From a virus (Duplodnaviria > Heunggongvirae > Uroviricota > Caudoviricetes): DNA of 26,172 nucleotides. This document shows, piece after piece, positions 10,783 to 22,168 of this stretch (position 1 is the stretch's first letter; each line of letters begins with the position of its first letter). The position numbers were made by a program, and so were the translations under genes. The notes below the pieces were generated by a model. The model saw nothing but the letters and a program-made list of their open reading frames with translations. It did no database searches and was not told the origin of the DNA. The DNA is taken from the IMG/VR virus record IMGVR_UViG_2548876702_000015, positions 1 to 26,172 of that record; one strand, 5' to 3'.

Positions 10783-12549
10783 ATGAACACCACACTGACA
10801 CCCGCAGATCTCGATCCCCGTCGGCAGGCCATGCTGCTGTACTTTCAGGGATACCGCGTAGCCCGCATTGCTGAAATGCTGGGCGAGAAAGTTGCAACCG
10901 TTCACAGCTGGAAAAAACGCGACAAGTGGGGTGACTATGGGCCGCTGGATCAGATGCAGCTCACCACCGCCGCACGCTACTGCCAGCTCATTATGAAGGA
11001 GCACAAAGAAGGGAAAGATTTCAAAGAGATTGACCTGCTGGCGCGCCAGTCGGAACGCCACGCGCGGATCGGCAAGTTTAACAATGGCGGCAACGAAGCC
11101 GACTTAAACCCTAACGTCGCCAACCGCAACAAAGGCCCGCGCCGTCAGCCGGAAAAGAATGTCTTCACCGATGAACAGATTGAGAAGCTGGAAGAAATCT
11201 TCCATTCCTCCATGTTCAACTACCAACGCCACTGGTGGGAAGCCGGAAAAACCAACCGCATCCGCAACCTGCTGAAGTCACGCCAGATCGGCGCGACCTT
11301 TTACTTTGCCCGTGAAGCCCTGATTGACGCTCTGCTTACCGGACGTAACCAGATTTTTCTTTCCGCCAGCAAGGCACAGGCCCACGTCTTCAAACAGTAC
11401 ATCATCGACTTTGCCAAAGAAGTGGAGGTGGAGCTGAAAGGCGATCCGATGGTGCTTCCCAACGGGGCCACACTGTATTTCCTCGGCACCAATGCCCGCA
11501 CTGCCCAGAGTTACCACGGCAACCTGTATCTGGATGAATATTTCTGGATACCGAAATTCCAGGAGCTGCGCAAAGTGGCTTCTGGTATGGCTATTCACAA
11601 GAAATGGCGACAAACCTATTTTTCCACGCCATCCAGCCTGACACACAGTGCTTATCCGTTCTGGTCCGGTGCACTGTTCAACCGTGGGCGCAACAAAGCC
11701 GATAAGGTGGACATCGACCTGTCCCACAGCAATCTGGCCCCCGGCCTGCTGTGCGCAGACGGGCAATACCGCCAGATAGTCACCGTGGAAGATGCGGTGC
11801 GCGGCGGCTGCAACCTGTTCGACCTTGACCAGTTGCGCATGGAGTACAGCCCGGACGAATACCAGAACCTGCTGATGTGCGAGTTTGTGGACGATCTCGC
11901 GTCCGTGTTTCCGCTCAGCGAGCTGCAGGCGTGCATGGTGGACAGTTGGGAAGTCTGGACCGACTTTCATGCTCTGGCCCTGCGCCCGTTTGGCTGGCGC
12001 GAAGTGTGGATCGGTTATGACCCGGCAAAAGGTACGCAGAACGGCGACAGTGCCGGATGCGTGGTGGTGGCACCGCCAGCCGTGCCGGGTGGTAAGTTCC
12101 GCATTCTTGAGCGTCACCAGTGGCGCGGGATGGACTTCCGCGCCCAGGCTGACGCCATCAAAAAACTGACCGAGCAGTACAACGTGACCTACATCGGCAT
12201 CGACTCGACAGGTGTCGGCCACGGGGTTTACGAGAACGTGAAAGCGTTTTTTCCAGCCGTCCGGGAGTTTGTCTATAACCCCAACGTTAAAAACGCCCTG
12301 GTACTCAAGGCCTACGACATTATCAGCCACCGCCGTCTGGAGTTTGACGCCGGACACACCGACATTGCGCAGTCATTCATGGCAATCCGTCGCGCAACCA
12401 CCGCCAGCGGCAACCGCCCGACCTATGAAGCCAGCCGCAGCGAAGAAGCCAGCCATGCGGATCTGGCCTGGGCAACGATGCACGCACTGTTTAACGAACC
12501 GCTGCAGGGCGAATCCGCCAATACCAGCAATATTGTGGAGATTTTTTGA
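10783..12549 (+). CDS. P: Terminase large (ATPase) subunit P (P2 gpP-like)
   Basis: 588 aa, ATG at 10783. Size and divergent position relative to O as in P2. Confidence 0.9.
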   Translation: MNTTLTPADLDPRRQAMLLYFQGYRVARIAEMLGEKVATVHSWKKRDKWGDYGPLDQMQLTTAARYCQLIMKEHKEGKDFKEIDLLARQSERHARIGKFNNGGNEADLNPNVANRNKGPRRQPEKNVFTDEQIEKLEEIFHSSMFNYQRHWWEAGKTNRIRNLLKSRQIGATFYFAREALIDALLTGRNQIFLSASKAQAHVFKQYIIDFAKEVEVELKGDPMVLPNGATLYFLGTNARTAQSYHGNLYLDEYFWIPKFQELRKVASGMAIHKKWRQTYFSTPSSLTHSAYPFWSGALFNRGRNKADKVDIDLSHSNLAPGLLCADGQYRQIVTVEDAVRGGCNLFDLDQLRMEYSPDEYQNLLMCEFVDDLASVFPLSELQACMVDSWEVWTDFHALALRPFGWREVWIGYDPAKGTQNGDSAGCVVVAPPAVPGGKFRILERHQWRGMDFRAQADAIKKLTEQYNVTYIGIDSTGVGHGVYENVKAFFPAVREFVYNPNVKNALVLKAYDIISHRRLEFDAGHTDIAQSFMAIRRATTASGNRPTYEASRSEEASHADLAWATMHALFNEPLQGESANTSNIVEIF

Positions 12550-13595
12550 TGGGAAAGAGTAAGAAGAACCGCGCTGCGGCGACGAAACAGATCCAGCTTA
12601 AAAGTCAAACTACAGCCGAAGCATTCAGCTTCGGCGATCCCGTTCCTGTTCTGGACCGCCGTGAACTGCTGGACTATGTGGAATGCGTACAGATGGATCG
12701 CTGGTATGAGCCGCCTGTCAGCTTTGACGGACTGGCACGAACCTTCCGCGCCGCCGTGCATCACAGCTCACCAATTGCGGTGAAATGCAACATTCTGACC
12801 AGTACCTACATCCCTCACCCGCTGCTCAGCCAGCAGGCTTTTTCACGTTTTGTGCAGGACTATCTGGTATTTGGTAACGCCTACCTGGAGAAACGCACGA
12901 ACCGCTTCGGTGAAGTTATCGCCCTTGAGCCTGCTCTGGCAAAATACACCCGACGCGGGTTAGACCTGGATACCTACTGGTTTGTGCAATACGGTATGAC
13001 AACCCAGCCGTATCAGTTCACGAAAGGCAGCATTTTTCATCTGATGGAACCGGACATCAACCAGGAGATCTACGGCCTGCCAGGTTATCTTTCTGCCATT
13101 CCATCAGCCCTGCTCAACGAGTCCGCCACGCTGTTCCGCCGGAAGTATTATATTAACGGCAGTCATGCAGGCTTCATCATGTACATGACCGATGCCGCGC
13201 AGAACCAGGAGGATGTGAACAACCTCCGCAATGCAATGAAAAGTGCCAAAGGGCCAGGCAACTTCCGCAACCTGTTTATGTACTCTCCTAACGGCAAAAA
13301 GGACGGGCTTCAGATTATCCCGTTGTCAGAAGTCGCGGCGAAGGATGAGTTTCTGAATATCAAGAACGTGAGCCGGGACGACATGATGGCGGCACACCGT
13401 GTGCCGCCGCAAATGATGGGGATAATGCCTAATAATGTTGGGGGCTTTGGTGATGTGGAGAAGGCTAGTCGTGTTTTTGTCCGCAACGAACTGATGCCCC
13501 TGCAGAAACAGCTACAAGAACTTAACTATTGGCTAGGCGAAGAAGCAATACGCTTTGATGCCTACTCCCTAAATTTCACAAACGATTCTTTTTGA
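12549..13595 (+). CDS. Q: Portal protein Q (P2 gpQ-like)
   Basis: ATG at 12549 overlapping the P stop (TGATG); ~348 aa. Position downstream of P, next to the expected cos region. Confidence 0.9.
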   Translation: MGKSKKNRAAATKQIQLKSQTTAEAFSFGDPVPVLDRRELLDYVECVQMDRWYEPPVSFDGLARTFRAAVHHSSPIAVKCNILTSTYIPHPLLSQQAFSRFVQDYLVFGNAYLEKRTNRFGEVIALEPALAKYTRRGLDLDTYWFVQYGMTTQPYQFTKGSIFHLMEPDINQEIYGLPGYLSAIPSALLNESATLFRRKYYINGSHAGFIMYMTDAAQNQEDVNNLRNAMKSAKGPGNFRNLFMYSPNGKKDGLQIIPLSEVAAKDEFLNIKNVSRDDMMAAHRVPPQMMGIMPNNVGGFGDVEKASRVFVRNELMPLQKQLQELNYWLGEEAIRFDAYSLNFTNDSF

Positions 13596-13640
13596 TAAAT
13601 ATGCTGGGCCCCCCCCCGGCATTTACTCACGCCCCAATTT
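13596..13640. other. Candidate cos (cohesive-end) region just downstream of the portal gene, containing a 9-C homopolymer
   Basis: In P2-family genomes cos lies next to the 3' end of Q. The reverse complement here reads GGGGCGTGAGTAAATGCCGGGGGGGGGCCCAGCAT, which resembles the GC-rich P2/186 cohesive ends (GGCG(A/T)GGCGGGGAAAGCA(C/T), as recalled) only loosely. Confidence 0.3.
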
Positions 13641-15377
13641 CCATACTGAATTATACGATAAAATACTTAGTTCAGCAGCTCTTGACCTCATATGATCGGG
13701 CGTCCATTCTCCTTGATATTTATTTTCAAATTCATCAATAAAAATTTTAACTAGCGCATATTGTGATTGTTTATAAATTTCAAGCTTATCCACAACAGAC
13801 TTATTTCCAGCTTTTTCATTTAATTCTTTTGAAAGTGGTAATAAATTTCCTATCATGCTATATACTTCAGAATCCCCCACACTCTGAGGCTGAATATGCT
13901 CTAATGTTAATGAATCAGGCATATACTCCCCCGTTTTCATGTGATGTAACTCAAGTCTATTAAAAATGTACTGAATCAACCTTTTATTTTTCAACTCTTG
14001 ATTTGAAAATTTAAGCATAACAAACTTTTCAACAAACATATTAATGTCTGGTTTTCTCTTCACCAACATTTCAAGCAAAGACTTTATTACTTGTCTATTA
14101 CTAGCTTTAGTAGAACCTTCATCCACTAAAGCCCTAGCAGCTTTAGCATACGCACTTTCAATACCTGATGGTCGCAATGAACAAATAGCATTAAACATAA
14201 AATGAAAGCGTTCAATTGACAGCACTGCATTATTCATATCAACAAGTTTTAGCGTTCCTCTTGCTCTTGCCTTAAATAAAGATAACAAAAATGGTTTATT
14301 CTGAGATATGTTAAACAGCCTTAATGCCTGCAAACCTCGATAAACTGGTTTCATTTCCAGTTCAGGAAAATCCTGTTCTGTAGGCGATGATATTTTCACA
14401 TATATCTCGGCATCTGAAAGTAGCTCATCAATGAACGCTGAAGCATCAATGTCGCCTTTTTTCCACTTATCCAGAAAAGCTTTATAAAGAGTGTCACTAC
14501 TTACATAAGAATATTTTGACACCCACCAATGACGGATAAATGTCTCGATAGAACCGACACCATTACGACTAGCAATTATTTGCCTAATTTTATTCCATTT
14601 AGTTTTTGCATCATCATCAGGATGTGTGCCATTCAGTTTCTTAAATAATTTGTTTTTTATAAGATCTACATAACTTAAGTTTAATCCCCTAGCATTCAGA
14701 GTTTCAAAGATTGTATAAGCTTCATCTTCATCATTAACTGTAATATAAATCACTTTCAGATACCGTAGAACTTGATCCCGCACAGCCTTCAACGCTTCCA
14801 AGTAGATAAATTTCTCTCTATCTACTCCTAATGTCTGGCAAAGATTATCTTCTGAAAGATACTCAGTTAAATCATTATATGAAGATTGCAAGTTTCTTTC
14901 TTCAAGGGACTCCGGTCCTTCATTTCTCTTATCAATATGCTGAATGTTGTTTTGAAAGTATGGCTTAGGAGTTTCATTAACTAATTTAAAAAAAGGTCTG
15001 CCATCGTCATCCATACCAGATATATAATTATTATATATTGATTGAGCTACAGCCAACTCATTTATCAACTTAAATTTATCACATAATGCTGATAACAATA
15101 TAGTAAGAGTCGTAAGACGTTGTTGACCATCTACAATCATCAGCTCAGAGCTAGTTTCCTGCCCGACCAAAACGAGAGCACCGATGAAATACTCATCATA
15201 TTGATACTGCCCATCCTCCTGGTAATGAATATTGGAAACTATATCATGCCAAAGTTCACTTACTTGTTCCTTCCCCCAAGAATATTCTCTTTGGAATCTA
15301 GGGACTATATATTTTTTATTTACAGATAACACGTTTGTTAAGGTTCGAGCATTTGCTTGCAGTTCCACTGAGGCCAC
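13623..15377 (-). CDS. DUF262 (ParB-like, DGQQR motif) + DUF1524 (His-Me finger) nuclease, GmrSD-like candidate type IV restriction / anti-phage protein
   Basis: 584 aa. N-terminal motifs ..YIVPRFQREYSW.. and IVDGQQRLTTL, and FETLNARG, are DUF262 hallmarks. C-terminal LEHIQPQS ... NLLPLSKELNEKAGNK fits the DUF1524 pattern. AT-rich relative to flanking phage genes. Start is GTG at 15377. Confidence 0.7.
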   Translation of the reverse strand: MASVELQANARTLTNVLSVNKKYIVPRFQREYSWGKEQVSELWHDIVSNIHYQEDGQYQYDEYFIGALVLVGQETSSELMIVDGQQRLTTLTILLSALCDKFKLINELAVAQSIYNNYISGMDDDGRPFFKLVNETPKPYFQNNIQHIDKRNEGPESLEERNLQSSYNDLTEYLSEDNLCQTLGVDREKFIYLEALKAVRDQVLRYLKVIYITVNDEDEAYTIFETLNARGLNLSYVDLIKNKLFKKLNGTHPDDDAKTKWNKIRQIIASRNGVGSIETFIRHWWVSKYSYVSSDTLYKAFLDKWKKGDIDASAFIDELLSDAEIYVKISSPTEQDFPELEMKPVYRGLQALRLFNISQNKPFLLSLFKARARGTLKLVDMNNAVLSIERFHFMFNAICSLRPSGIESAYAKAARALVDEGSTKASNRQVIKSLLEMLVKRKPDINMFVEKFVMLKFSNQELKNKRLIQYIFNRLELHHMKTGEYMPDSLTLEHIQPQSVGDSEVYSMIGNLLPLSKELNEKAGNKSVVDKLEIYKQSQYALVKIFIDEFENKYQGEWTPDHMRSRAAELSILSYNSVWKLGRE

Positions 15378-15509
15378 CTACTTTAGTTGTTTGTATTACA
15401 CAGTTTTATAGCATTGGAGTTTGAATGACAACCCGTTGCGCGCGCTCGTATCCCCGCCACGCCTGCCCGCTTTATGTAGTGGTTTTCATGCAGATGCATG
15501 CTCTACGCA

Positions 15510-15540
15510 AAAGCCCGCCAGTTCTGGCGGGCTTTTGCAA
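15510..15540 (-). terminator. Rho-independent terminator (bidirectional hairpin) after the three-gene operon
   Basis: GCCCGCC-agttct-GGCGGGC stem-loop flanked by A-run and T-run (caaaaGCCCGCCagttctGGCGGGCttttgc), 60-90 nt downstream of the stop of the 15600..16016 gene. Confidence 0.6.
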
Positions 15541-15599
15541 AAACGATCCTCAAACGATCATGCGATTTCATGCAGCATAGTCATGCAAAGTAGAAACTG

Positions 15600-16016
15600 C
15601 TATTTAACGTCCGGCGTTTGCGCTGTGGGGGATACTTTTCCATCTAGCGTATTTACAATTGAGAGGGGGTAAATTCCCATTTCAATTCCACAGATCACGT
15701 CGTAACGAGCCTGCGCTTTCTCTCGCATTTCTGGAGAAACAGGGGACGATGGTGCATTTAAAACTGCTTCGGCTTGCTTCTTCAGAGCCTTCAACCGCCT
15801 TTTCAGTTTGATTTCTTGCGGATCAACAGCATAAATCGTCCATGCAAAAGTAAAAACTTCGCTTAAAAGAATTGACACCATCGGTATTGAAGCAATGTAA
15901 AGGTCTTTCCATGTTGGATCTGTAATGAAGCTAGCCAGCTTTATTAGGAAAAGGCCTACACCGCCGCCACCTGTAACACCGACTGCTTTACCGCTTGTTT
16001 TCTTTTGTTCAGGCAT
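15600..16016 (-). CDS. Small membrane protein (2 predicted TM helices), third gene of the uncharacterised three-gene operon
   Basis: ATG at 16016-16014 with a strong AGGAAGGAG SD, 2 nt after the stop of the preceding gene; 138 aa. Hydrophobic segments GVTGGGGVGLFLIKLASFI and IPMVSILLSEVFTFAWTIYAV, with a Lys/Arg-rich helix between. Confidence 0.5.
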   Translation of the reverse strand: MPEQKKTSGKAVGVTGGGGVGLFLIKLASFITDPTWKDLYIASIPMVSILLSEVFTFAWTIYAVDPQEIKLKRRLKALKKQAEAVLNAPSSPVSPEMREKAQARYDVICGIEMGIYPLSIVNTLDGKVSPTAQTPDVK

Positions 16017-16272
16017 GAGAGGCTGACTCCTTCCTCTCACGCTTATTTTTCTCTGCTATATCATCGATGAGCTTTATTAACTCATCATCATTGTTTATAT
16101 AAATATTTGTTTTATAGACATTTTTGTTTGCATCAGTATAAGTGATAGAAACTTTTGTTTCGACAATAACTCGATCGAGCAGGCTACGTATAGCCACTCT
16201 AGCACCTATAAATATAGCTGGAGCTGCAACAAGCAGCCCCAACCATCCTAACACACTAATATCTATAGACAT
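16009..16272 (-). CDS. Small single-pass membrane protein, second gene of the three-gene operon
   Basis: 87 aa, ATG at 16272-16270, 2 nt after the stop of the 304-aa gene. N-terminal TM helix (ISVLGWLGLLVAAPAIFIGARVAI) then a charged soluble tail. Confidence 0.5.
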   Translation of the reverse strand: MSIDISVLGWLGLLVAAPAIFIGARVAIRSLLDRVIVETKVSITYTDANKNVYKTNIYINNDDELIKLIDDIAEKNKRERKESASHA

Positions 16273-16274
16273 TT

Positions 16275-17189
16275 TTAATCCGCATCAGGTTTTATTTTTC
16301 TATCTTTGGCGGCAAAGTGTCGACCCACTTTGATGATCGATAACTTTTCGTCTACCTGGCCACCGGAATCTTTCACAATTTTCTTCATCTTCACAGCAAA
16401 CAATTCGCCAAAAATTTTGGGGGCGTCTGGTCCAGTAACAAGCTTGATGAACTCATTATCTTCCATTCTGACATTGCGCTTTTCACCGCCAAACTCAACA
16501 CGCCAGCCACTTTTTTTGTCAGTATGCGCCGAAACGAATGTCACGGTTGTTTCAAATTCGTCAACTTCTTCTTTGGTTTCAAAGAGAACTTTTGGCGACT
16601 TAAACTCTTCTGCCTCATCTTTATGAATTTTGAGGATTTCTTTCTTAGAGGTGCGCGATTTTTTTACCACAAAATTGTCGATACCATCTTGTAACAGAGG
16701 CTGTCTGACAAACGCGTCAACAGCCTTACGAATCTCTGGGGCATTAACGATTTTTTCGACATCTTCAGAGCAAACAATCTCTTCACCATCGACTTTCAGC
16801 TTAACTTTGTCACTACCGTTAGCTTTCTCGACTATGTCGATCTTACGCCCGTTAAGCTTCTTGAGAACCTCTAAAACTGTAGCACCGCCAACGGCTAAAG
16901 GAATGGCTGACAAACCTAAAATTTGTACAACATCTTTAGCATTAGCTAGATGTTGTACAACCTCAATATCAAACCCAAAGGAACCGGCTATCAATTCAGC
17001 GTCAACGTTAACTTCAATGTCTCGCCCTCCGTTTACAATCTCATTTGCAGAGTAGATAGCCTCACCTAGCCCCTGCAAACTTTTCGCAAACGAAAGAATA
17101 TCCATCTTATGATCGTCGAGAGCTTTGCCTTGATACACAATACTTACTGATTGAGTCTTATCCGCCATTGAGTTCAGATCCGTTGCCAA
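16275..17189 (-). CDS. Hypothetical soluble protein (~297-304 aa), first gene of the three-gene operon; no family recognised
   Basis: Long ORF with coding-like composition, Lys/Glu/Asp-rich C-terminal half. TTG at 17189 or ATG at 17168 are possible starts. AT-rich accessory context. Confidence 0.55.
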   Translation of the reverse strand: MATDLNSMADKTQSVSIVYQGKALDDHKMDILSFAKSLQGLGEAIYSANEIVNGGRDIEVNVDAELIAGSFGFDIEVVQHLANAKDVVQILGLSAIPLAVGGATVLEVLKKLNGRKIDIVEKANGSDKVKLKVDGEEIVCSEDVEKIVNAPEIRKAVDAFVRQPLLQDGIDNFVVKKSRTSKKEILKIHKDEAEEFKSPKVLFETKEEVDEFETTVTFVSAHTDKKSGWRVEFGGEKRNVRMEDNEFIKLVTGPDAPKIFGELFAVKMKKIVKDSGGQVDEKLSIIKVGRHFAAKDRKIKPDAD

Positions 17190-17304: not shown

Positions 17305-17538
17305 TCAATGCAGCCAGCAGTCGTCTTCCCACACCTTCTGCATAATTTTCAGCACTTGTTTTCTTTCTTCGTCCAGTTGCAGTCCGGTCAGTTCCACACC
17401 GTTAGAGCTACCTTTGCGGATACGAATTACCGTTTTGGGATACAGGGGGCGCAGATTGCGGTAAAGCTCGGATTCAAGGGCATCCAGGGTAGACTGGCTA
17501 ATCTTCTGCTCTTTATCGATCATTATTTCAATGCGCAT
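17305..17538 (-). CDS. DinI-family protein (SOS-induced; Tum/DinI-like)
   Basis: 77 aa from ATG 17538-17536 with a GAGGTG SD. MRIEIMIDKEQ..LDALESELYRNLRPLYPKTVIRIRKGSSNGVELTGL..KQVLKIMQKVWEDDCW parallels E. coli DinI (MRIEVTIAK...) as recalled. Downstream of a LexA box. Confidence 0.6.
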   Translation of the reverse strand: MRIEIMIDKEQKISQSTLDALESELYRNLRPLYPKTVIRIRKGSSNGVELTGLQLDEERKQVLKIMQKVWEDDCWLH

Positions 17539-17548
17539 AAAAGTCACC

Positions 17549-17737
17549 TCAGCTGATGACATCCATTGAGCGGTTGTATTCGTGGGTTCTGATTTTTGCC
17601 ATGAGTTCATCTGTCAGTTCAGAAACCCACTGCAAAGCCAGCCCCTTCTCTTCATCACTACACTCACTAGCCGCTACAAGCTTAAGAAAAAAATCAATGC
17701 GCTGGAGCTTCAAAGACTCCAAAAAATAGTCCTGCAT
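17549..17737 (-). CDS. Small hypothetical protein (62 aa), first gene of the LexA-controlled operon
   Basis: ATG at 17737-17735 with a GGAGGA SD. Its stop overlaps the SD of the DinI-like gene (translational coupling). Confidence 0.45.
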   Translation of the reverse strand: MQDYFLESLKLQRIDFFLKLVAASECSDEEKGLALQWVSELTDELMAKIRTHEYNRSMDVIS

Positions 17738-17780
17738 CTTTCCTCCTATGACACCACAAGCAATACTGTATGCATAACCA

Positions 17781-17796
17781 CTGTTTATATTTACAG
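17781..17796 (-). promoter_or_regulatory. LexA (SOS) box overlapping the promoter of the small-protein/DinI-like operon
   Basis: CTGT-TTATATTT-ACAG (cCACTGTttatatttACAGTAta) fits the CTGT-N8-ACAG consensus with an AT-rich centre. On the transcribed strand a TATACT -10 overlaps the box and a TTTACA -35-like hexamer lies upstream. About 40 nt upstream of the ATG at 17737. Confidence 0.6.
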
Positions 17797-17890
17797 TATA
17801 TAATAATCTTACTGATGTAAAACGTTTTTTTACGTTCATCAGCCTGATATGCCTGGTATTATTAAGAGCACGAATTGTTAACCCGCGTAA

Positions 17891-20263
17891 TTAATACAGG
17901 TTTCGCCACTTATCATCTTCCTGCAAACGCTGGTTCCGATAGAAGATACGCAGGCCTGCTCCTGACGGAATACTGCCGCCGCGAAGGAGTAAATCGACCT
18001 CTTTCTCGCTGCCATCAAATCCTCTGGACTTCAGTTCATAGACGAGCTGCTGTCGCTGATGGTCTGTAATTCGCTGTTTGTAGTCTTTACGCCGTTTCGG
18101 TTTCACCAGGCGTAACCTTGCAGCCAGTTCCCGGCGCTCTTTTTTGCTCATACTGTGCAGGTAATCGTGCAACTCCTTGTCATCCATGCGGGTAATGTCC
18201 GTCCTGGTATCCCCATCAGCTGATTTGTCTTTCCCTTGTTGGTTCAAATTTTCAGCAAGGGGACAGTTATTGCCACGAGTCCAAGGGGCGCAAGCGCCCT
18301 GGTCGGCTGCCGCCTCCTGAACATCAACGGCCTTACGAACCATTTTCCACTTCACGGCATGAGTGCAGATCTTGCCCTCTGCAATAGGTGACCAGATGCC
18401 ATAAATACGAATGCCGTGATCGCCATAGGCGGTCGGCTCTTCGTTGATTTCATAAGCGGTTCTGATGAGGTGATATTTGCGGGGAACCAGTACGCCGCCC
18501 TGCTTCATGATGTAGGTGGCAAAACAACCAGCATCAGCAGCAGCCAGGATGGCATCAAGGCGCGGGTTATCCAGTACCGGCGCACCTGCTTTTTTGTCCC
18601 CCTGTTGCCTTGCCGCCTGACCAGCCAGCAATCGCAGTTCACGGTAAGCCTGACGCCCCGGAATGCCAAAGAAGCGGAATTGCTGAACACGATGCAGAGA
18701 CGCCCAGGCATTAACGTATTCAGCATTATCACGTAGGGATTTCCCCGTTTCCTTGCTGATCTCGCCAGCCAGACCACGCCCGTCAATGTTCTTACTGATG
18801 TATTTCGCGATGTAGCTTGTTGGCGTACCTTTGCGCGGGTTAATCAACTCAGACTTAAAGCGCGGCCCAGTGTTATTGCCCAGTTCCTCGCGGTCTTCAC
18901 GGATGGCAAACTTACGCAGTAATGCAGTGATGGCGCGGCGGTCTTTTTTGCGCATAAAACACAACAGGTGCCAGTGAACTGTACCGTCATGATGCGGCTC
19001 AGCCACCCGCACGCCATACCACCGCAATCCGGCTTTGTGCATCGCCTTACGAAATGCAGCAAACATGCCGACCAGATAATCACTGCTTTGTCTTACCGTC
19101 GCATTTGTCCAAGTTGGGTTGGGCCTGCCATTATTTAGCGTGGAATGGAAACGTGACGGACAGGTGATGGTGTAGAAAACGGCGCAGTCACCGCGCATTT
19201 CCGCGATAAGCTCCAGGCCTTTAACACAGGCCATCATCTCATTGCGGCGATGCGCAGGGTTGCTGCTGCTGGCGTTTACCACATCCTCCATGTCCAGCGT
19301 GTCGCCGTCTTCGTTCACCAGTTCATGAGAACGAAAAAACTCCAGCGACTTACGGCGCTGCTCACGTTTATGCATCACGGCTTCATAGCTGACATAGGGA
19401 GATGCTTTTTTGCTGACCAGGCAGACAGCACGCAACTGCTCTTCCCGCCATTCGCAACGCATCTTCCATAATTTCCGGTACCACCAGTCAGCGCACAACA
19501 TACGCGCCAGCGAACCCGGAATGAGTTCATAGGGCACGGGTTTACGGCGGTTTCTTTTCCGGCGGAGTTGCTCAAACGCAGGCGGGATGACATCCAGACG
19601 CAGGGTTTCCGCTGCCACCTTTTCCCATGTCTTGCGGATTTCTTCTGGCTTAACGTCATCGGTGACATACAAATCGCCACAAGCTGCATCAAGGCACATG
19701 CTCATATGCGCAGCTACCAGGGTGGACAGGCGTTTCACCTGATCCTGACTCATTTCAGGCAGGATCAGCAGGCCGTCCAGCCCTTCATGGCTTGCCATAA
19801 AGCGAAAAGAAGTGGATAGCTGACAGTCGCGTACATGCTCCAGCCGTTCCAGACATGGCTTAATCGTCTCACGCAAATAGCGGGAATAAGCCTTTGGCCT
19901 GCCCAGGCTGCTGAAGTATTCAATACGTTGCATCAGTGGCTTGCTGATATGGGAAGGCTGGGCATTAACGTCCGCCAGAATGACCATATCTGGATTAAAA
20001 CGCTGCTGCTCATGCGCCAGCTTTGCCCGACTAATGAGCTTATCCTGCTCCATTTCGCGCTGGACAGGATCACGGGATTCATTAAAGAAATAACGCTCCC
20101 AGACCTGATCACTCAGTGCCTCGCGGCGCAGCTGTTCCTGCTCGTTATCGGCAGCGTACAGAGCGATCAGGTTTGAAAGCGCAGAAACTGAAGATTGCTC
20201 TTCCGTCTCTACGTAAGGATTGATTGCTTTTTTCTCAGCATTCCAGGAATAGCTGTAGTTCAT
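17891..20263 (-). CDS. A: Replication initiation endonuclease A (rolling-circle HUH nickase, P2 gpA-like)
   Basis: ~790 aa from ATG 20263-20261 ([12 protein letters not shown]). HUH-type motif (..[10 protein letters not shown]..). Position at the end of the early operon. Confidence 0.85.
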
Positions 20264-21093
20264 TACGCAATCTCCAGTTCGAGCTGTGAAGGCTGCAAAC
20301 CATTCGACAGCCAATCAGAAACTGAAGGTGGGCGAACAGCTTCAATTGCACCTTTTAAAATTGCGCAACGGTTTTTCAGAATGACAGCTTTCAGCTCCTT
20401 TTCCGTCAGATTGCGCGAATACTCAGCCTCCTGAATAGCCCGCGTCAGCTCAGGATATTTGCTATTAAATTTGGGGACATTGCAGGCAAGATTTGTACTG
20501 TCGGCAGTCGCCAGTGGGTAATTTCCCAACACACGACCGTCAAGCATGCGCAAACCATGAACAGCTGTTTTGAAATTGTGTCGGCAATAAATTGCTTCAA
20601 AAGCGTCCTGCATACGACGATGCCAGTGCGCAGTTCTGATAGCCGCATATTCACCAGACGATCCAAAGCAGACACGAGGCCATTCACGACATAGCTCGAT
20701 AAGCCGATCGATTGACTCGTGCAGATGCCAGACGGGAGTTGCCTTCCCGTAGAACATTTTCGGAACTTCGTTTATCAGGGCATCATTGTCACGTTCACCT
20801 CCGTCCACAACATCAGGAATGACAAAAAAAGCGACCTTAGGATGGTGGTAATAGTTCAGGAGCCATTTATAAAAATCACTCCAGTTAATTTTTAGCCCAC
20901 GCACCCATGCAGAAAATGCGCCGTTATCAATGCCGACGACCTGAGCGTGCTGAATGGACGCCGCAATCTGATCTGGTCGTACATAGGAGACGAAAGCGCC
21001 AGCTCCGCTCACCGCAATACGATGAACGTCGCCAGCACTTCCCCAGACAGGCGTCCCATGGAAATGATGAATTCCGTGGTGCATTTCTTTCAC
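20263..21093 (-). CDS. Hypothetical protein (~273 aa), His-rich N-terminus, co-transcribed between Dam and A; function unknown
   Basis: Track start is GTG at 21093; ATG at 21084-21082 gives [15 protein letters not shown]... Stop overlaps the A start (TAATG). No family confidently recognised. Confidence 0.55.
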
Positions 21094-21944
21094 ACTTGCA
21101 CCCCGAAAATAACAGTAGAGTCACGTCCCCTACTAAAATCGGCACTAAACCAATTAGCAGATTTAGTGGCAATCATCTCTGTTGCAAATTTTCCCTCCCC
21201 CGCTGCAACGCCGATGCTGCGTTTCGCCCTGATGTAGTGGTGAGTGAAATTACGATAAAGGGACCGGGTCAAAGACGTGTTACTGTTAGAAACAATGACC
21301 GGATGTCCTTCTGATGACCGATGTTCAAGAATGGATGCCAGGTGATACTGATCATCTTCAGTGAAACCATCAGTGTGATAGCCGGAAAACGTACCGTCAT
21401 AAGGCGGATCGCAATACACCACATCCCCCACCTTCAACATCGCCAGCGTTTCATCAAAGCTGGCGCAGATAAACGTTGCCCGCTGGGCTTTCTCTGCAAA
21501 TGCGCGAATTTCTTTTTCAGGGAAATACGGATTTTTATAATTACCGTAGGGAATGTTGAAATGCCCGCTCTTGTTATAGCGACATAAACCACGGTAACCG
21601 TGACGATTGAGATACAGGAAATATACCGCTTTCATGAAATCAGTAATTTCAGTGGAGTAATTAAACTCCTGCCTTATGTTGTAATAAGCCGCCTCCCTGT
21701 TTGCTTCCTCAAATAAAGCTCTGGCACGAGATATAAACGCCTCACAATCAGCAGCAACCTTTTTATAGAGGTTGATTAAATCAGGATTAATATCCGCAAC
21801 AAGATAGCTGGGGTAATCCGTCTCCATCATCACTGCACAGGAACCCGCGAAAGGTTCAACCAGTCGCGGGCCAGCAGGAAGATGCTTTTTCAGTTCGGAC
21901 ATTATGGCGGTTTTATTTCCTGCCCATTTCAGGATGGTGCTCAT
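21090..21944 (-). CDS. dam: DNA adenine methyltransferase (Dam/D12 class N6-adenine MTase)
   Basis: ATG at 21944-21942 ([11 protein letters not shown]..). SAM-binding motif ..[10 protein letters not shown].. and catalytic DPPY motif (VYCDPPYDG). 284 aa. Confidence 0.8.
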
Positions 21945-22168
21945 ACAGCACCTCCGTTGTAATGTTTGCCTTTCAGCTCTGCGATTTCCTGACAGGTAAT
22001 GCAAAGCTGCACACCCGGAATGGCACGGCGGCGTGCTGGCGGAATTGGCGCTTCACACTCAACGCAAAGCACGCGGGACACGCCCGGCGTTTTGGCACGG
22101 GCAGCACGGATATGGCGTTGGCGTTCTTCTTCAACGCGCTGCTGTACGAGATCCATTGCATCAGCCAT
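21941..22168 (-). CDS. TraR/DksA-family C4 zinc-finger protein
   Basis: 75 aa, ATG at 22168-22166. CVECEAPIP..(x17)..CITCQ four-cysteine zinc-finger spacing. Stop overlaps the Dam start. Confidence 0.7.
   Translation of the reverse strand: MADAMDLVQQRVEEERQRHIRAARAKTPGVSRVLCVECEAPIPPARRRAIPGVQLCITCQEIAELKGKHYNGGAV

Follow-up and report, generated by a model that had tools for sequence, protein, structure and literature searches.

The window analysed here, the whole 26,172-nucleotide (nt) stretch of virus record IMGVR_UViG_2548876702_000015, is a P2/186-like (Peduoviridae) prophage of E. coli, and a nuclease gene forms a 1.8-kb insert between its portal gene Q and its cohesive-end site (cos). 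We read the product of this gene, with a probability of about 0.7, as a stand-alone, nucleoside triphosphate (NTP)-regulated, modification-dependent (type IV-like) restriction nuclease that is expressed from the lysogen and carried as cargo of the Q-cos slot. The parts of this reading differ in strength. That the gene encodes a defence nuclease of the GmrSD/HEC-06 family, carried as hotspot cargo, is very probable, and dependence on DNA modification, argued by analogy with characterised relatives, is reasonably likely. What can be shown directly is the domain architecture, the complete set of family-defining motifs, the fold class, and where the cargo lies and ends.

Architecture of the nuclease and its kinship with HEC-06

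The mechanically called open reading frame (ORF), 13623..15377 on the minus strand, encodes 584 amino acids (aa) from the first GTG at 15377. The true start is almost certainly the second GTG at 15368, which gives a protein of 581 aa, because homologues begin MEL..., a 54%-identical allele has its ATG at exactly the codon of GTG 15368, the sequence AGGTGG lies just upstream, and the Prokaryotic Genome Annotation Pipeline (PGAP) also annotates 581 aa. The features of the gene are as follows.

13623..15368, minus strand: coding sequence of the GmrSD-family (HEC-06-like) nuclease, 581 aa, second GTG start
14643..15335, minus strand: N-terminal DUF262/GmrSD_N domain (ParB/Srx-like NTPase/sensor), residues 15-245 of the 584-aa ORF
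13668..14009, minus strand: C-terminal DUF1524/GmrSD_C His-Me finger (beta-beta-alpha) nuclease domain, residues 457-570 of the 584-aa ORF
15117..15131, minus strand: codons of the DGQQR motif (NTP-binding/hydrolysis loop), invariant in the 25-sequence alignment
13896..13901, minus strand: codons of the catalytic Glu-His pair (LEHI), E490/H491, placed by alignment with tested HEC-06
15374-15379, minus strand: Shine-Dalgarno-like AGGTGG, 5 nt upstream of GTG 15368

A preliminary description of this DNA had proposed a nuclease of GmrSD architecture, probably anti-phage and type IV-like, and that proposal is supported by the Pfam domain pair, a full-length match to HEC-06, and a fold shared with DndI, SspE and BrxU. 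Both Pfam profiles were matched far above their gathering scores: GmrSD_N (DUF262, PF03235) at an E value of 1e-38 and 133.9 bits (cut-off 33.2), spanning profile positions 3-199 of 199, and GmrSD_C (DUF1524, PF07510) at 1.2e-11 and 45.2 bits (cut-off 23). The strings that had been singled out in the 584-aa ORF, namely IVDGQQRLTTL, LEHIQPQS and NLLPLSKELNEKAGNK, are all present in the translation. The GmrSD family is defined in the literature by the motifs QR, (I/V)DGQQR, FxxxN and (D/E)H...N...N (Machnicka et al. 2015). In 581-aa numbering, the DUF262 motifs are Q26 R27, I78-V79-D80-G81-Q82-Q83-R84 and F221...N225, and the nuclease motif EH...N...N is made up of E490-H491, N508 and N517. In an alignment of 25 homologues QR, DGQQR, FxxxN, E490, H491, N508 and N517 are all invariant.

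The fold was assessed with an AlphaFold (AF2) model built on the same number of homologues, with a predicted local distance difference test score (pLDDT) of 84.8. The model consists of an N-terminal alpha/beta domain, a long linker made up entirely of helices (residues 236-479), and, towards the C-terminus, a strand-strand-helix element (strand 491-494, strand 512-515, helix 517-523) that corresponds to the His-Me finger. Searched against the PDB with Foldseek at E<=1e-4, it matches only DndI (9.8e-15), SspE (7.7e-14) and BrxU (5.7e-5). A sequence search of the PDB finds DndI 9JFL at 1.5e-12 and SspE weakly, and phmmer returns no match to BrxU 7P9K at E<=1. No NCBIfam model matches the nuclease. 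In PADLOC, the best of 34 models is HEC-06 (PDLC04154, 3.8e-90), which aligns residues 1-581 with model positions 1-566 of 569. The PADLOC 'Orf5' models rank after it and overlap with HEC-06, the tested HEC-06 allele itself matching one of them at 4e-175, and the SspE and type IV (mREase_IV, 5.6e-16) models match the N-terminal domain only.

HEC-06 is the PADLOC name for 'Hma-embedded candidate 06', a gene found embedded in Hma systems (Payne et al., bioRxiv 10.1101/2024.01.29.577857). According to that paper, HEC-06 protected E. coli from phages, protection was lost in the mutants Q79A, R80A, E471A and H472A, and S46A had no effect; the gene was assayed alone in a delta-RM derivative of E. 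coli K-12 MG1655, and the passages on this assay mention no toxicity. The tested allele, WP_096851903 of E. coli MOD1-EC1687, was obtained through Table S2 of that paper and the genome of E. coli S3, where a Rac-like prophage holds an identical copy of its first 399 nt. Looking for the tested protein by its EHICP motif among our own homologue matches returned none. The window protein is 26% identical to tested HEC-06 (E 2e-35) and colinear with it end to end, with the mutated residues in register: E471/H472 of the tested allele align with E490/H491, and the DGQQR motifs, which include Q79/R80 in the tested allele, coincide. Both proteins have PDLC04154 as their top PADLOC model, both are single chains of about 560-580 aa with the order DUF262-linker-DUF1524, and both occur on E. 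coli prophages. They differ in that the window protein reads EHIQP where the tested allele reads EHICP and is encoded in the P2 Q-cos slot and not embedded in Hma, BREX or type I restriction-modification loci. It also falls into a subclade of its own that is tightly conserved, with 53-56% identity separating enterobacterial from cyanobacterial members. Ser46 of the tested allele corresponds to a variable position in the window family (His in the window protein), with which the neutrality of S46A agrees.

Comparison with other known systems places the protein further. Like the GmrSD enzymes Eco94GmrSD and EcoCT596 GmrSD, it joins GmrSD_N and GmrSD_C, and thus the DGQQR motif and the His-Me finger, in a single polypeptide, but it has no close sequence kinship with them and its nuclease motif is EHI and not DHIYP. 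DndI (9JFL) and SspE (6JIV/7DRR) are the closest solved structures by both sequence and fold and have the same three-part architecture; however, identity is only 15-18%, and those enzymes are partnered with dndBCDE or sspABCD modification modules. BrxU (7P9K), the BREX-associated type IV enzyme of the GmrSD family, has the fold class and catalytic motifs in common with the window protein, but the fold match is weaker, the sequence match is absent at the threshold given above, and the window prophage is without BREX genes. HEC-06 is reported to be distinct from BrxU and to lack the BrxU RLFDS motif (bioRxiv 10.1101/2024.01.29.577857), a motif that is also absent from the translation of the window protein.

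The family is large, with 790 clusters at 50% identity for E<=1e-30 and 17,518 for E<=1e-3. The 90% cluster of the window nuclease has 100 members. Six complete E. coli genomes carry the gene intact at 99.8-99.9% identity, and the same prophage segment is annotated in all of them; the copies span 1823-1824 nt against the 1825-nt query, which indicates small indels. Klebsiella lambdoid prophages have a homologue of 86% identity, placed between their replication genes and nin region (loci L005-L008, 6001-7740), and the locus of the tested HEC-06 allele is in the Rac-like prophage of E. coli S3 (L017, 9001-10683); HEC-06-type genes thus move among unrelated temperate phage backbones. Homologues of 53-60% identity are also found at non-phage chromosomal sites, cyanobacteria included. 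For instance, a 60%-identical homologue lies in a Pectobacterium island rich in toxin-antitoxin genes, and a cyanobacterium has a 54%-identical one beside a Fic/MazE pair. Over the full length, filamentous cyanobacteria have homologues with 51-56% identity to the enterobacterial prophage protein; such conservation across phyla is unusually high for a defence gene and suggests recent horizontal spread or strong constraint. A tblastn search of 50,697 deposited phage genomes found distant relatives only, at <=27% identity, among Listeria phages and gut phages, so that the gene is known from prophages and not from sequenced virions.

The neighbours of the homologues differ in every context examined, as expected of a single-gene system such as HEC-06. 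Neither the annotated counterpart of the 26-kb window nor the surroundings of homologues in five further contexts contain dnd or ssp genes, and those five contexts hold no dedicated methyltransferase partner beside the gene. The nuclease is stand-alone, because it occurs in contexts without dnd, ssp or a dedicated methyltransferase, and the lack of a cognate methyltransferase partner in the contexts examined is consistent with a type IV enzyme.

The slot between Q and cos

The gene order of the prophage is P, Q, a low-GC stretch, gpA, Dam, and then the early/immunity region and integrase; the copy in NZ_CP020107 adjoins rcdA/ybjJ. The low-GC stretch begins directly after Q, and its features, together with those of the flanking packaging genes, are listed here.

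10783-12549, plus strand: terminase P
12546..13595, plus strand: portal gene Q (Pfam Phage_portal and annotation of the same prophage), left edge of the cargo slot
13601..13622, no strand assigned: poly-C9 hairpin in the 27-nt gap between the Q and nuclease stops, -12.9 kcal/mol, z = -2.5 (plus strand)
15405..15431, minus strand: putative own promoter of the nuclease gene, TTGTCA (15431-15426), 15-nt spacer, extended -10 TGcTATAAA (15413-15405), read by hand
15445..15463, minus strand: cos core, 19 nt, GGCGTGGCGGGGATACGAG on the minus strand, aligning to P2 cosL/cosR GGCGAGGCGGGGAAAGCAC
15438..15587, no strand assigned: conserved cos block of 150 bp, common to about 90 P2-like phage records, right edge of the cargo module
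15500..15544, minus strand: strong hairpin with U-run inside the cos block, -30.6 kcal/mol, z = -6.55

The cargo module runs from 13596 to about 15436. Several features of the gene that were noted earlier hold up on measurement: it is convergent with Q, its stop codon lies 27 nt from that of the portal gene (about 30 bp had been claimed), and it is AT-rich, with a GC content of 34.4% against 54.8% for P and Q together. Its placement at or over cos has to be corrected. The cos core, equivalent to the 19-nt cohesive end of P2, is at 15445-15463, about 77 bp upstream of the nuclease start and thus beyond the 5' end of the gene, and the gap beside Q contains only the poly-C hairpin, whose loop and 3' arm consist of nine consecutive C. 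This hairpin may be a weak bidirectional terminator.

The P2 cohesive-end sequence has no match in the window with up to 3 mismatches allowed, and the core differs from that of P2 at 5 of 19 positions. It was located by homology to Cartapus, Fels-2 and the circularised cos junction of P2. The core is identical in Cartapus (where it is annotated as putative cos), in Fels-2 and at locus L009. Fels-2 and the window stay identical up to and including cos, and the two sequences part about 9 nt further on. With cos at this position, the gene and its upstream region would lie at the extreme left end of the packaged linear DNA. RefSeq/PGAP calls a pseudogene ('hypothetical protein, internal stop') across cos (L002 15786-15974, about 15383-15571 in the window), which is most likely an annotation artefact.

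The cos-adjacent region between gpA and gpQ is a known defence hotspot of P2-like phages (Rousset et al. 2022, PMC9122126). The insert lies between gpA and Q and beside cos, has a GC content of 34% against 55%, and takes a place whose occupants vary. Like old/tin of P2 and the gpA-gpQ hotspot in general, which holds anti-phage genes expressed from the prophage, it is variable cos-side cargo. However, old/tin flanks cos towards gpA, where virion DNA has its right end, while the window gene is on the Q side, at the left end. In P2 itself, the space between Q and cos is only a 167-bp spacer with the terminator tQ. Five different occupants of the slot were seen in other P2-like phages, each on the strand opposite to Q and starting just inside cos.

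Fels-2, L016 1737-3434, opposite to Q: AbiU/AIPR, 2.7e-112
Klebsiella phage ST15-OXA48phi14.1, L015 3002-4435, opposite to Q: bSEFIR/TIR, 6.9e-103
Cartapus, L001 3291-3989, opposite to Q: DUF4145 protein, weak PD-T7-4 match
p13P477T-2, L014 1735-3409, opposite to Q: frameshifted gene
another E. coli P2-like prophage, L009 6001-7740, and H74 (NZ_CP019944): 54%-identical HEC-06-like allele

Because different single genes fill the slot in other P2-like phages, the Q side of cos behaves as a defence sub-hotspot of its own. Two observations concern the 54%-identical allele: the L009-type prophage carries a HEPN_LA2681 protein on the other side of cos, and in strain DSM 103246 the allele is split by an IS2 insertion.

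As regards expression, the promoter elements at 15405-15431 suggest that the nuclease may be expressed from its own promoter in the lysogen, and in the 54%-identical allele TGgTGTAAT stands in the same column as the -10 element. A consensus scan for promoters and terminators found no enrichment and none upstream of the nuclease gene, a miss that is due to the 15-nt spacer. The strong hairpin at 15500-15544 may be the terminator of the operon upstream (encoding proteins of 304, 87 and 146 aa), a part of terminase recognition, or both, and it likely insulates the nuclease gene from that operon.

Probable target of the nuclease and alternative readings

On the model of the characterised relatives, the nuclease would be transcribed from its own promoter in the lysogen. 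The N-terminal ParB-like DUF262 domain would bind and hydrolyse NTP and so gate the enzyme, and the C-terminal His-Me finger would cut the incoming DNA of competing phages. The target would most probably be hypermodified DNA, such as the hydroxymethylcytosine (hmC) or glucosyl-hmC of T-even phages. The lysogen and its resident prophage would be protected in this way, and host DNA carrying only Dam/Dcm marks would be spared. A later study reported that HEC-06 blocks T4, and it showed that a 22%-identical Bacteroides homologue (HEC-06_Bact) restricts T-even phages while sparing T4-GT7, whose cytosine is unmodified. Several points weigh against the reading as a whole. The nearest experimentally tested relative is only 26% identical, and for the HEC-06 family the case for modification dependence comes from a single distant homologue studied in vivo. 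By sequence and fold, the nearest solved structures are DndI and SspE, which sense self phosphorothioate and not foreign hypermodification. Lastly, the promoter is non-canonical in its spacer and went unflagged by the consensus scan.

The preliminary description had also pointed to a Dam methylase in the same prophage and to a question of self-compatibility for a modification-dependent nuclease. The methylase is indeed present, and the genes around it are the following.

17891-20314, minus strand: replication gene A (gpA)
20263-21093, minus strand: DpdA-like ORF, 276 aa, between gpA and Dam, PHROG 887
21090..22004, minus strand: Dam, D12-class

The concern itself has little force. The E. coli chromosome is already GATC-methylated (Dam+), the MG1655 delta-RM assay host in which tested HEC-06 works is Dam+/Dcm+, and the gene is intact in many lysogens. 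Moreover, the marks to which characterised relatives respond are hypermodifications (of cytosine, or 7-deazaguanine) and phosphorothioate; N6-methyladenine (m6A) in GATC is not among them.

The neighbouring 276-aa ORF is of greater interest in this respect. It matches PHROG 887, 'queuine tRNA-ribosyltransferase', at 2.4e-96, and its AF2 model (pLDDT 84.2, TIM-barrel-like) finds phage proteins annotated as queuine tRNA-ribosyltransferase in BFVD at E 3e-7 and a template modelling (TM) score of about 0.6. A Foldseek search of the PDB returned generic TIM barrels only, and there was no match in Pfam, PDB sequences or PADLOC. Of 5426 complete E. coli genomes, 103 have the ORF, annotated as 'hypothetical', and it is absent from the related prophages L002 and L009. 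Sequence profile and predicted structure together suggest that it is probably a singleton DpdA-like DNA transglycosylase, a kind of protein already described in phages of gamma-proteobacteria. Because this ORF adjoins Dam and the GmrSD-like system GrwAB restricts 7-deazaguanine phages, self-modification of the prophage DNA and its tolerance by the nuclease would be a sharper question of self-compatibility than Dam, though a speculative one. A bolder extension is that the HEC-06-like subclade reads a mark different from the T-even cytosine modifications (such as 7-deazaguanine or another purine hypermodification), or senses a self-mark, and that its presence beside the DpdA-like protein and Dam in one prophage is functional and no coincidence, the genes forming a split modification/restriction pair; we consider this very doubtful.

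A nuclease of the DndI/SspE type would work the other way around, attacking DNA that lacks a host or prophage mark (phosphorothioate, or a mark of the Dam or DpdA-like kind) and staying off on marked self DNA. The best PDB matches by sequence and by fold are precisely these phosphorothioate sensors, the phosphorothioate-sensing Tyr25 of DndI aligns with an invariant Phe in the window family, and the prophage encodes both Dam and the DpdA-like protein. However, identity to DndI and SspE is low, the dnd and ssp modules are missing from every context covered above, and there are related prophages that have the same or an allelic nuclease and lack the DpdA-like gene. A mobile phage gene cannot depend on a host-specific mark, and tested HEC-06 works alone in E. 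coli K-12 delta-RM. Sensing of self-marks is thus distinctly unlikely. Another kind of trigger is somewhat easier to entertain, if still improbable: the enzyme could respond to a cue of infection other than DNA modification, such as nucleotide pools or a phage protein, and then degrade DNA indiscriminately in the manner of abortive infection (Abi). In BrxU and SspE, DUF262 acts as a switch that binds NTP, other phages have Abi-type proteins (AbiU/AIPR, SEFIR/TIR) in the same slot, and GrwAB, a two-gene GmrSD-like system, gives no clean rescue of infected cells. Against this, all characterised single-chain GmrSD relatives discriminate by DNA chemistry, and the window protein has no sensor domain besides the canonical three-part architecture.

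The position of the gene beside cos and the portal and terminase genes, together with its HNH-type motif, could also be taken to indicate a packaging accessory, that is, a ParB-like/HNH protein aiding terminase at cos like the HNH proteins of the HK97 gp74 type. Packaging HNH proteins of the gp74 type are small, lie next to terminase in all related phages, and are co-oriented with the packaging genes. The nuclease, in contrast, has 581 aa, is encoded on the strand opposite to the P-Q operon, and is absent from P2, Fels-2 and Cartapus, so it was rejected as a protein of that type. P2 packages normally with only 167 bp and a terminator at the same position, and unrelated genes fill the slot in related phages. 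The GC content is 20 points below that of the packaging genes, and homologues are found in other places, the 86% one in a lambdoid replication-nin region and those of 53-60% at non-phage chromosomal sites. A role in packaging is scarcely credible. The stand-alone modification-dependent nuclease remains the preferred reading.

Earlier publications cover the family, its motifs, its defence role and the hotspot, and PADLOC by itself would name the gene HEC-06; the analysis brings no new mechanism and opens no new mechanistic question. What is new is modest, namely a conserved HEC-06-like subclade and a clarified position on the Q side of cos. The gene is an intact, additional example of a GmrSD/HEC-06-type nuclease on temperate P2-like phages. 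The picture of the P2 hotspot becomes more precise as well, with cargo on both sides of cos and a Q-side slot that repeatedly holds single-gene defences flush against the conserved cos block. In practical terms, the protein that RefSeq lists as 'DUF262 domain-containing protein' can now be annotated as 'GmrSD-family (HEC-06-like) defence nuclease', and for phage therapy and typing, lysogens of this prophage may resist T-even-like phages.

Other genes between cos and gpA

The gpA side of cos carries a three-gene minus-strand operon at 15600-17189. Its 304-aa protein matches PADLOC PDC-S42 at 7.8e-44 and the NCBIfam model 'LAPAL motif-containing putative phage structural protein' at 2e-56. The other two proteins, of 87 and 146 aa, have one hydrophobic helix at the N-terminus and two hydrophobic helices, respectively. 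The operon probably represents another defence candidate of this hotspot, as yet uncharacterised. Between this cargo and gpA, at 17305-17839 on the minus strand, lie genes for a DinI-like protein (Pfam 8.4e-21) and a small conserved ORF (phrog_698, 1.5e-37), an arrangement that recurs in Fels-2 and related phages.

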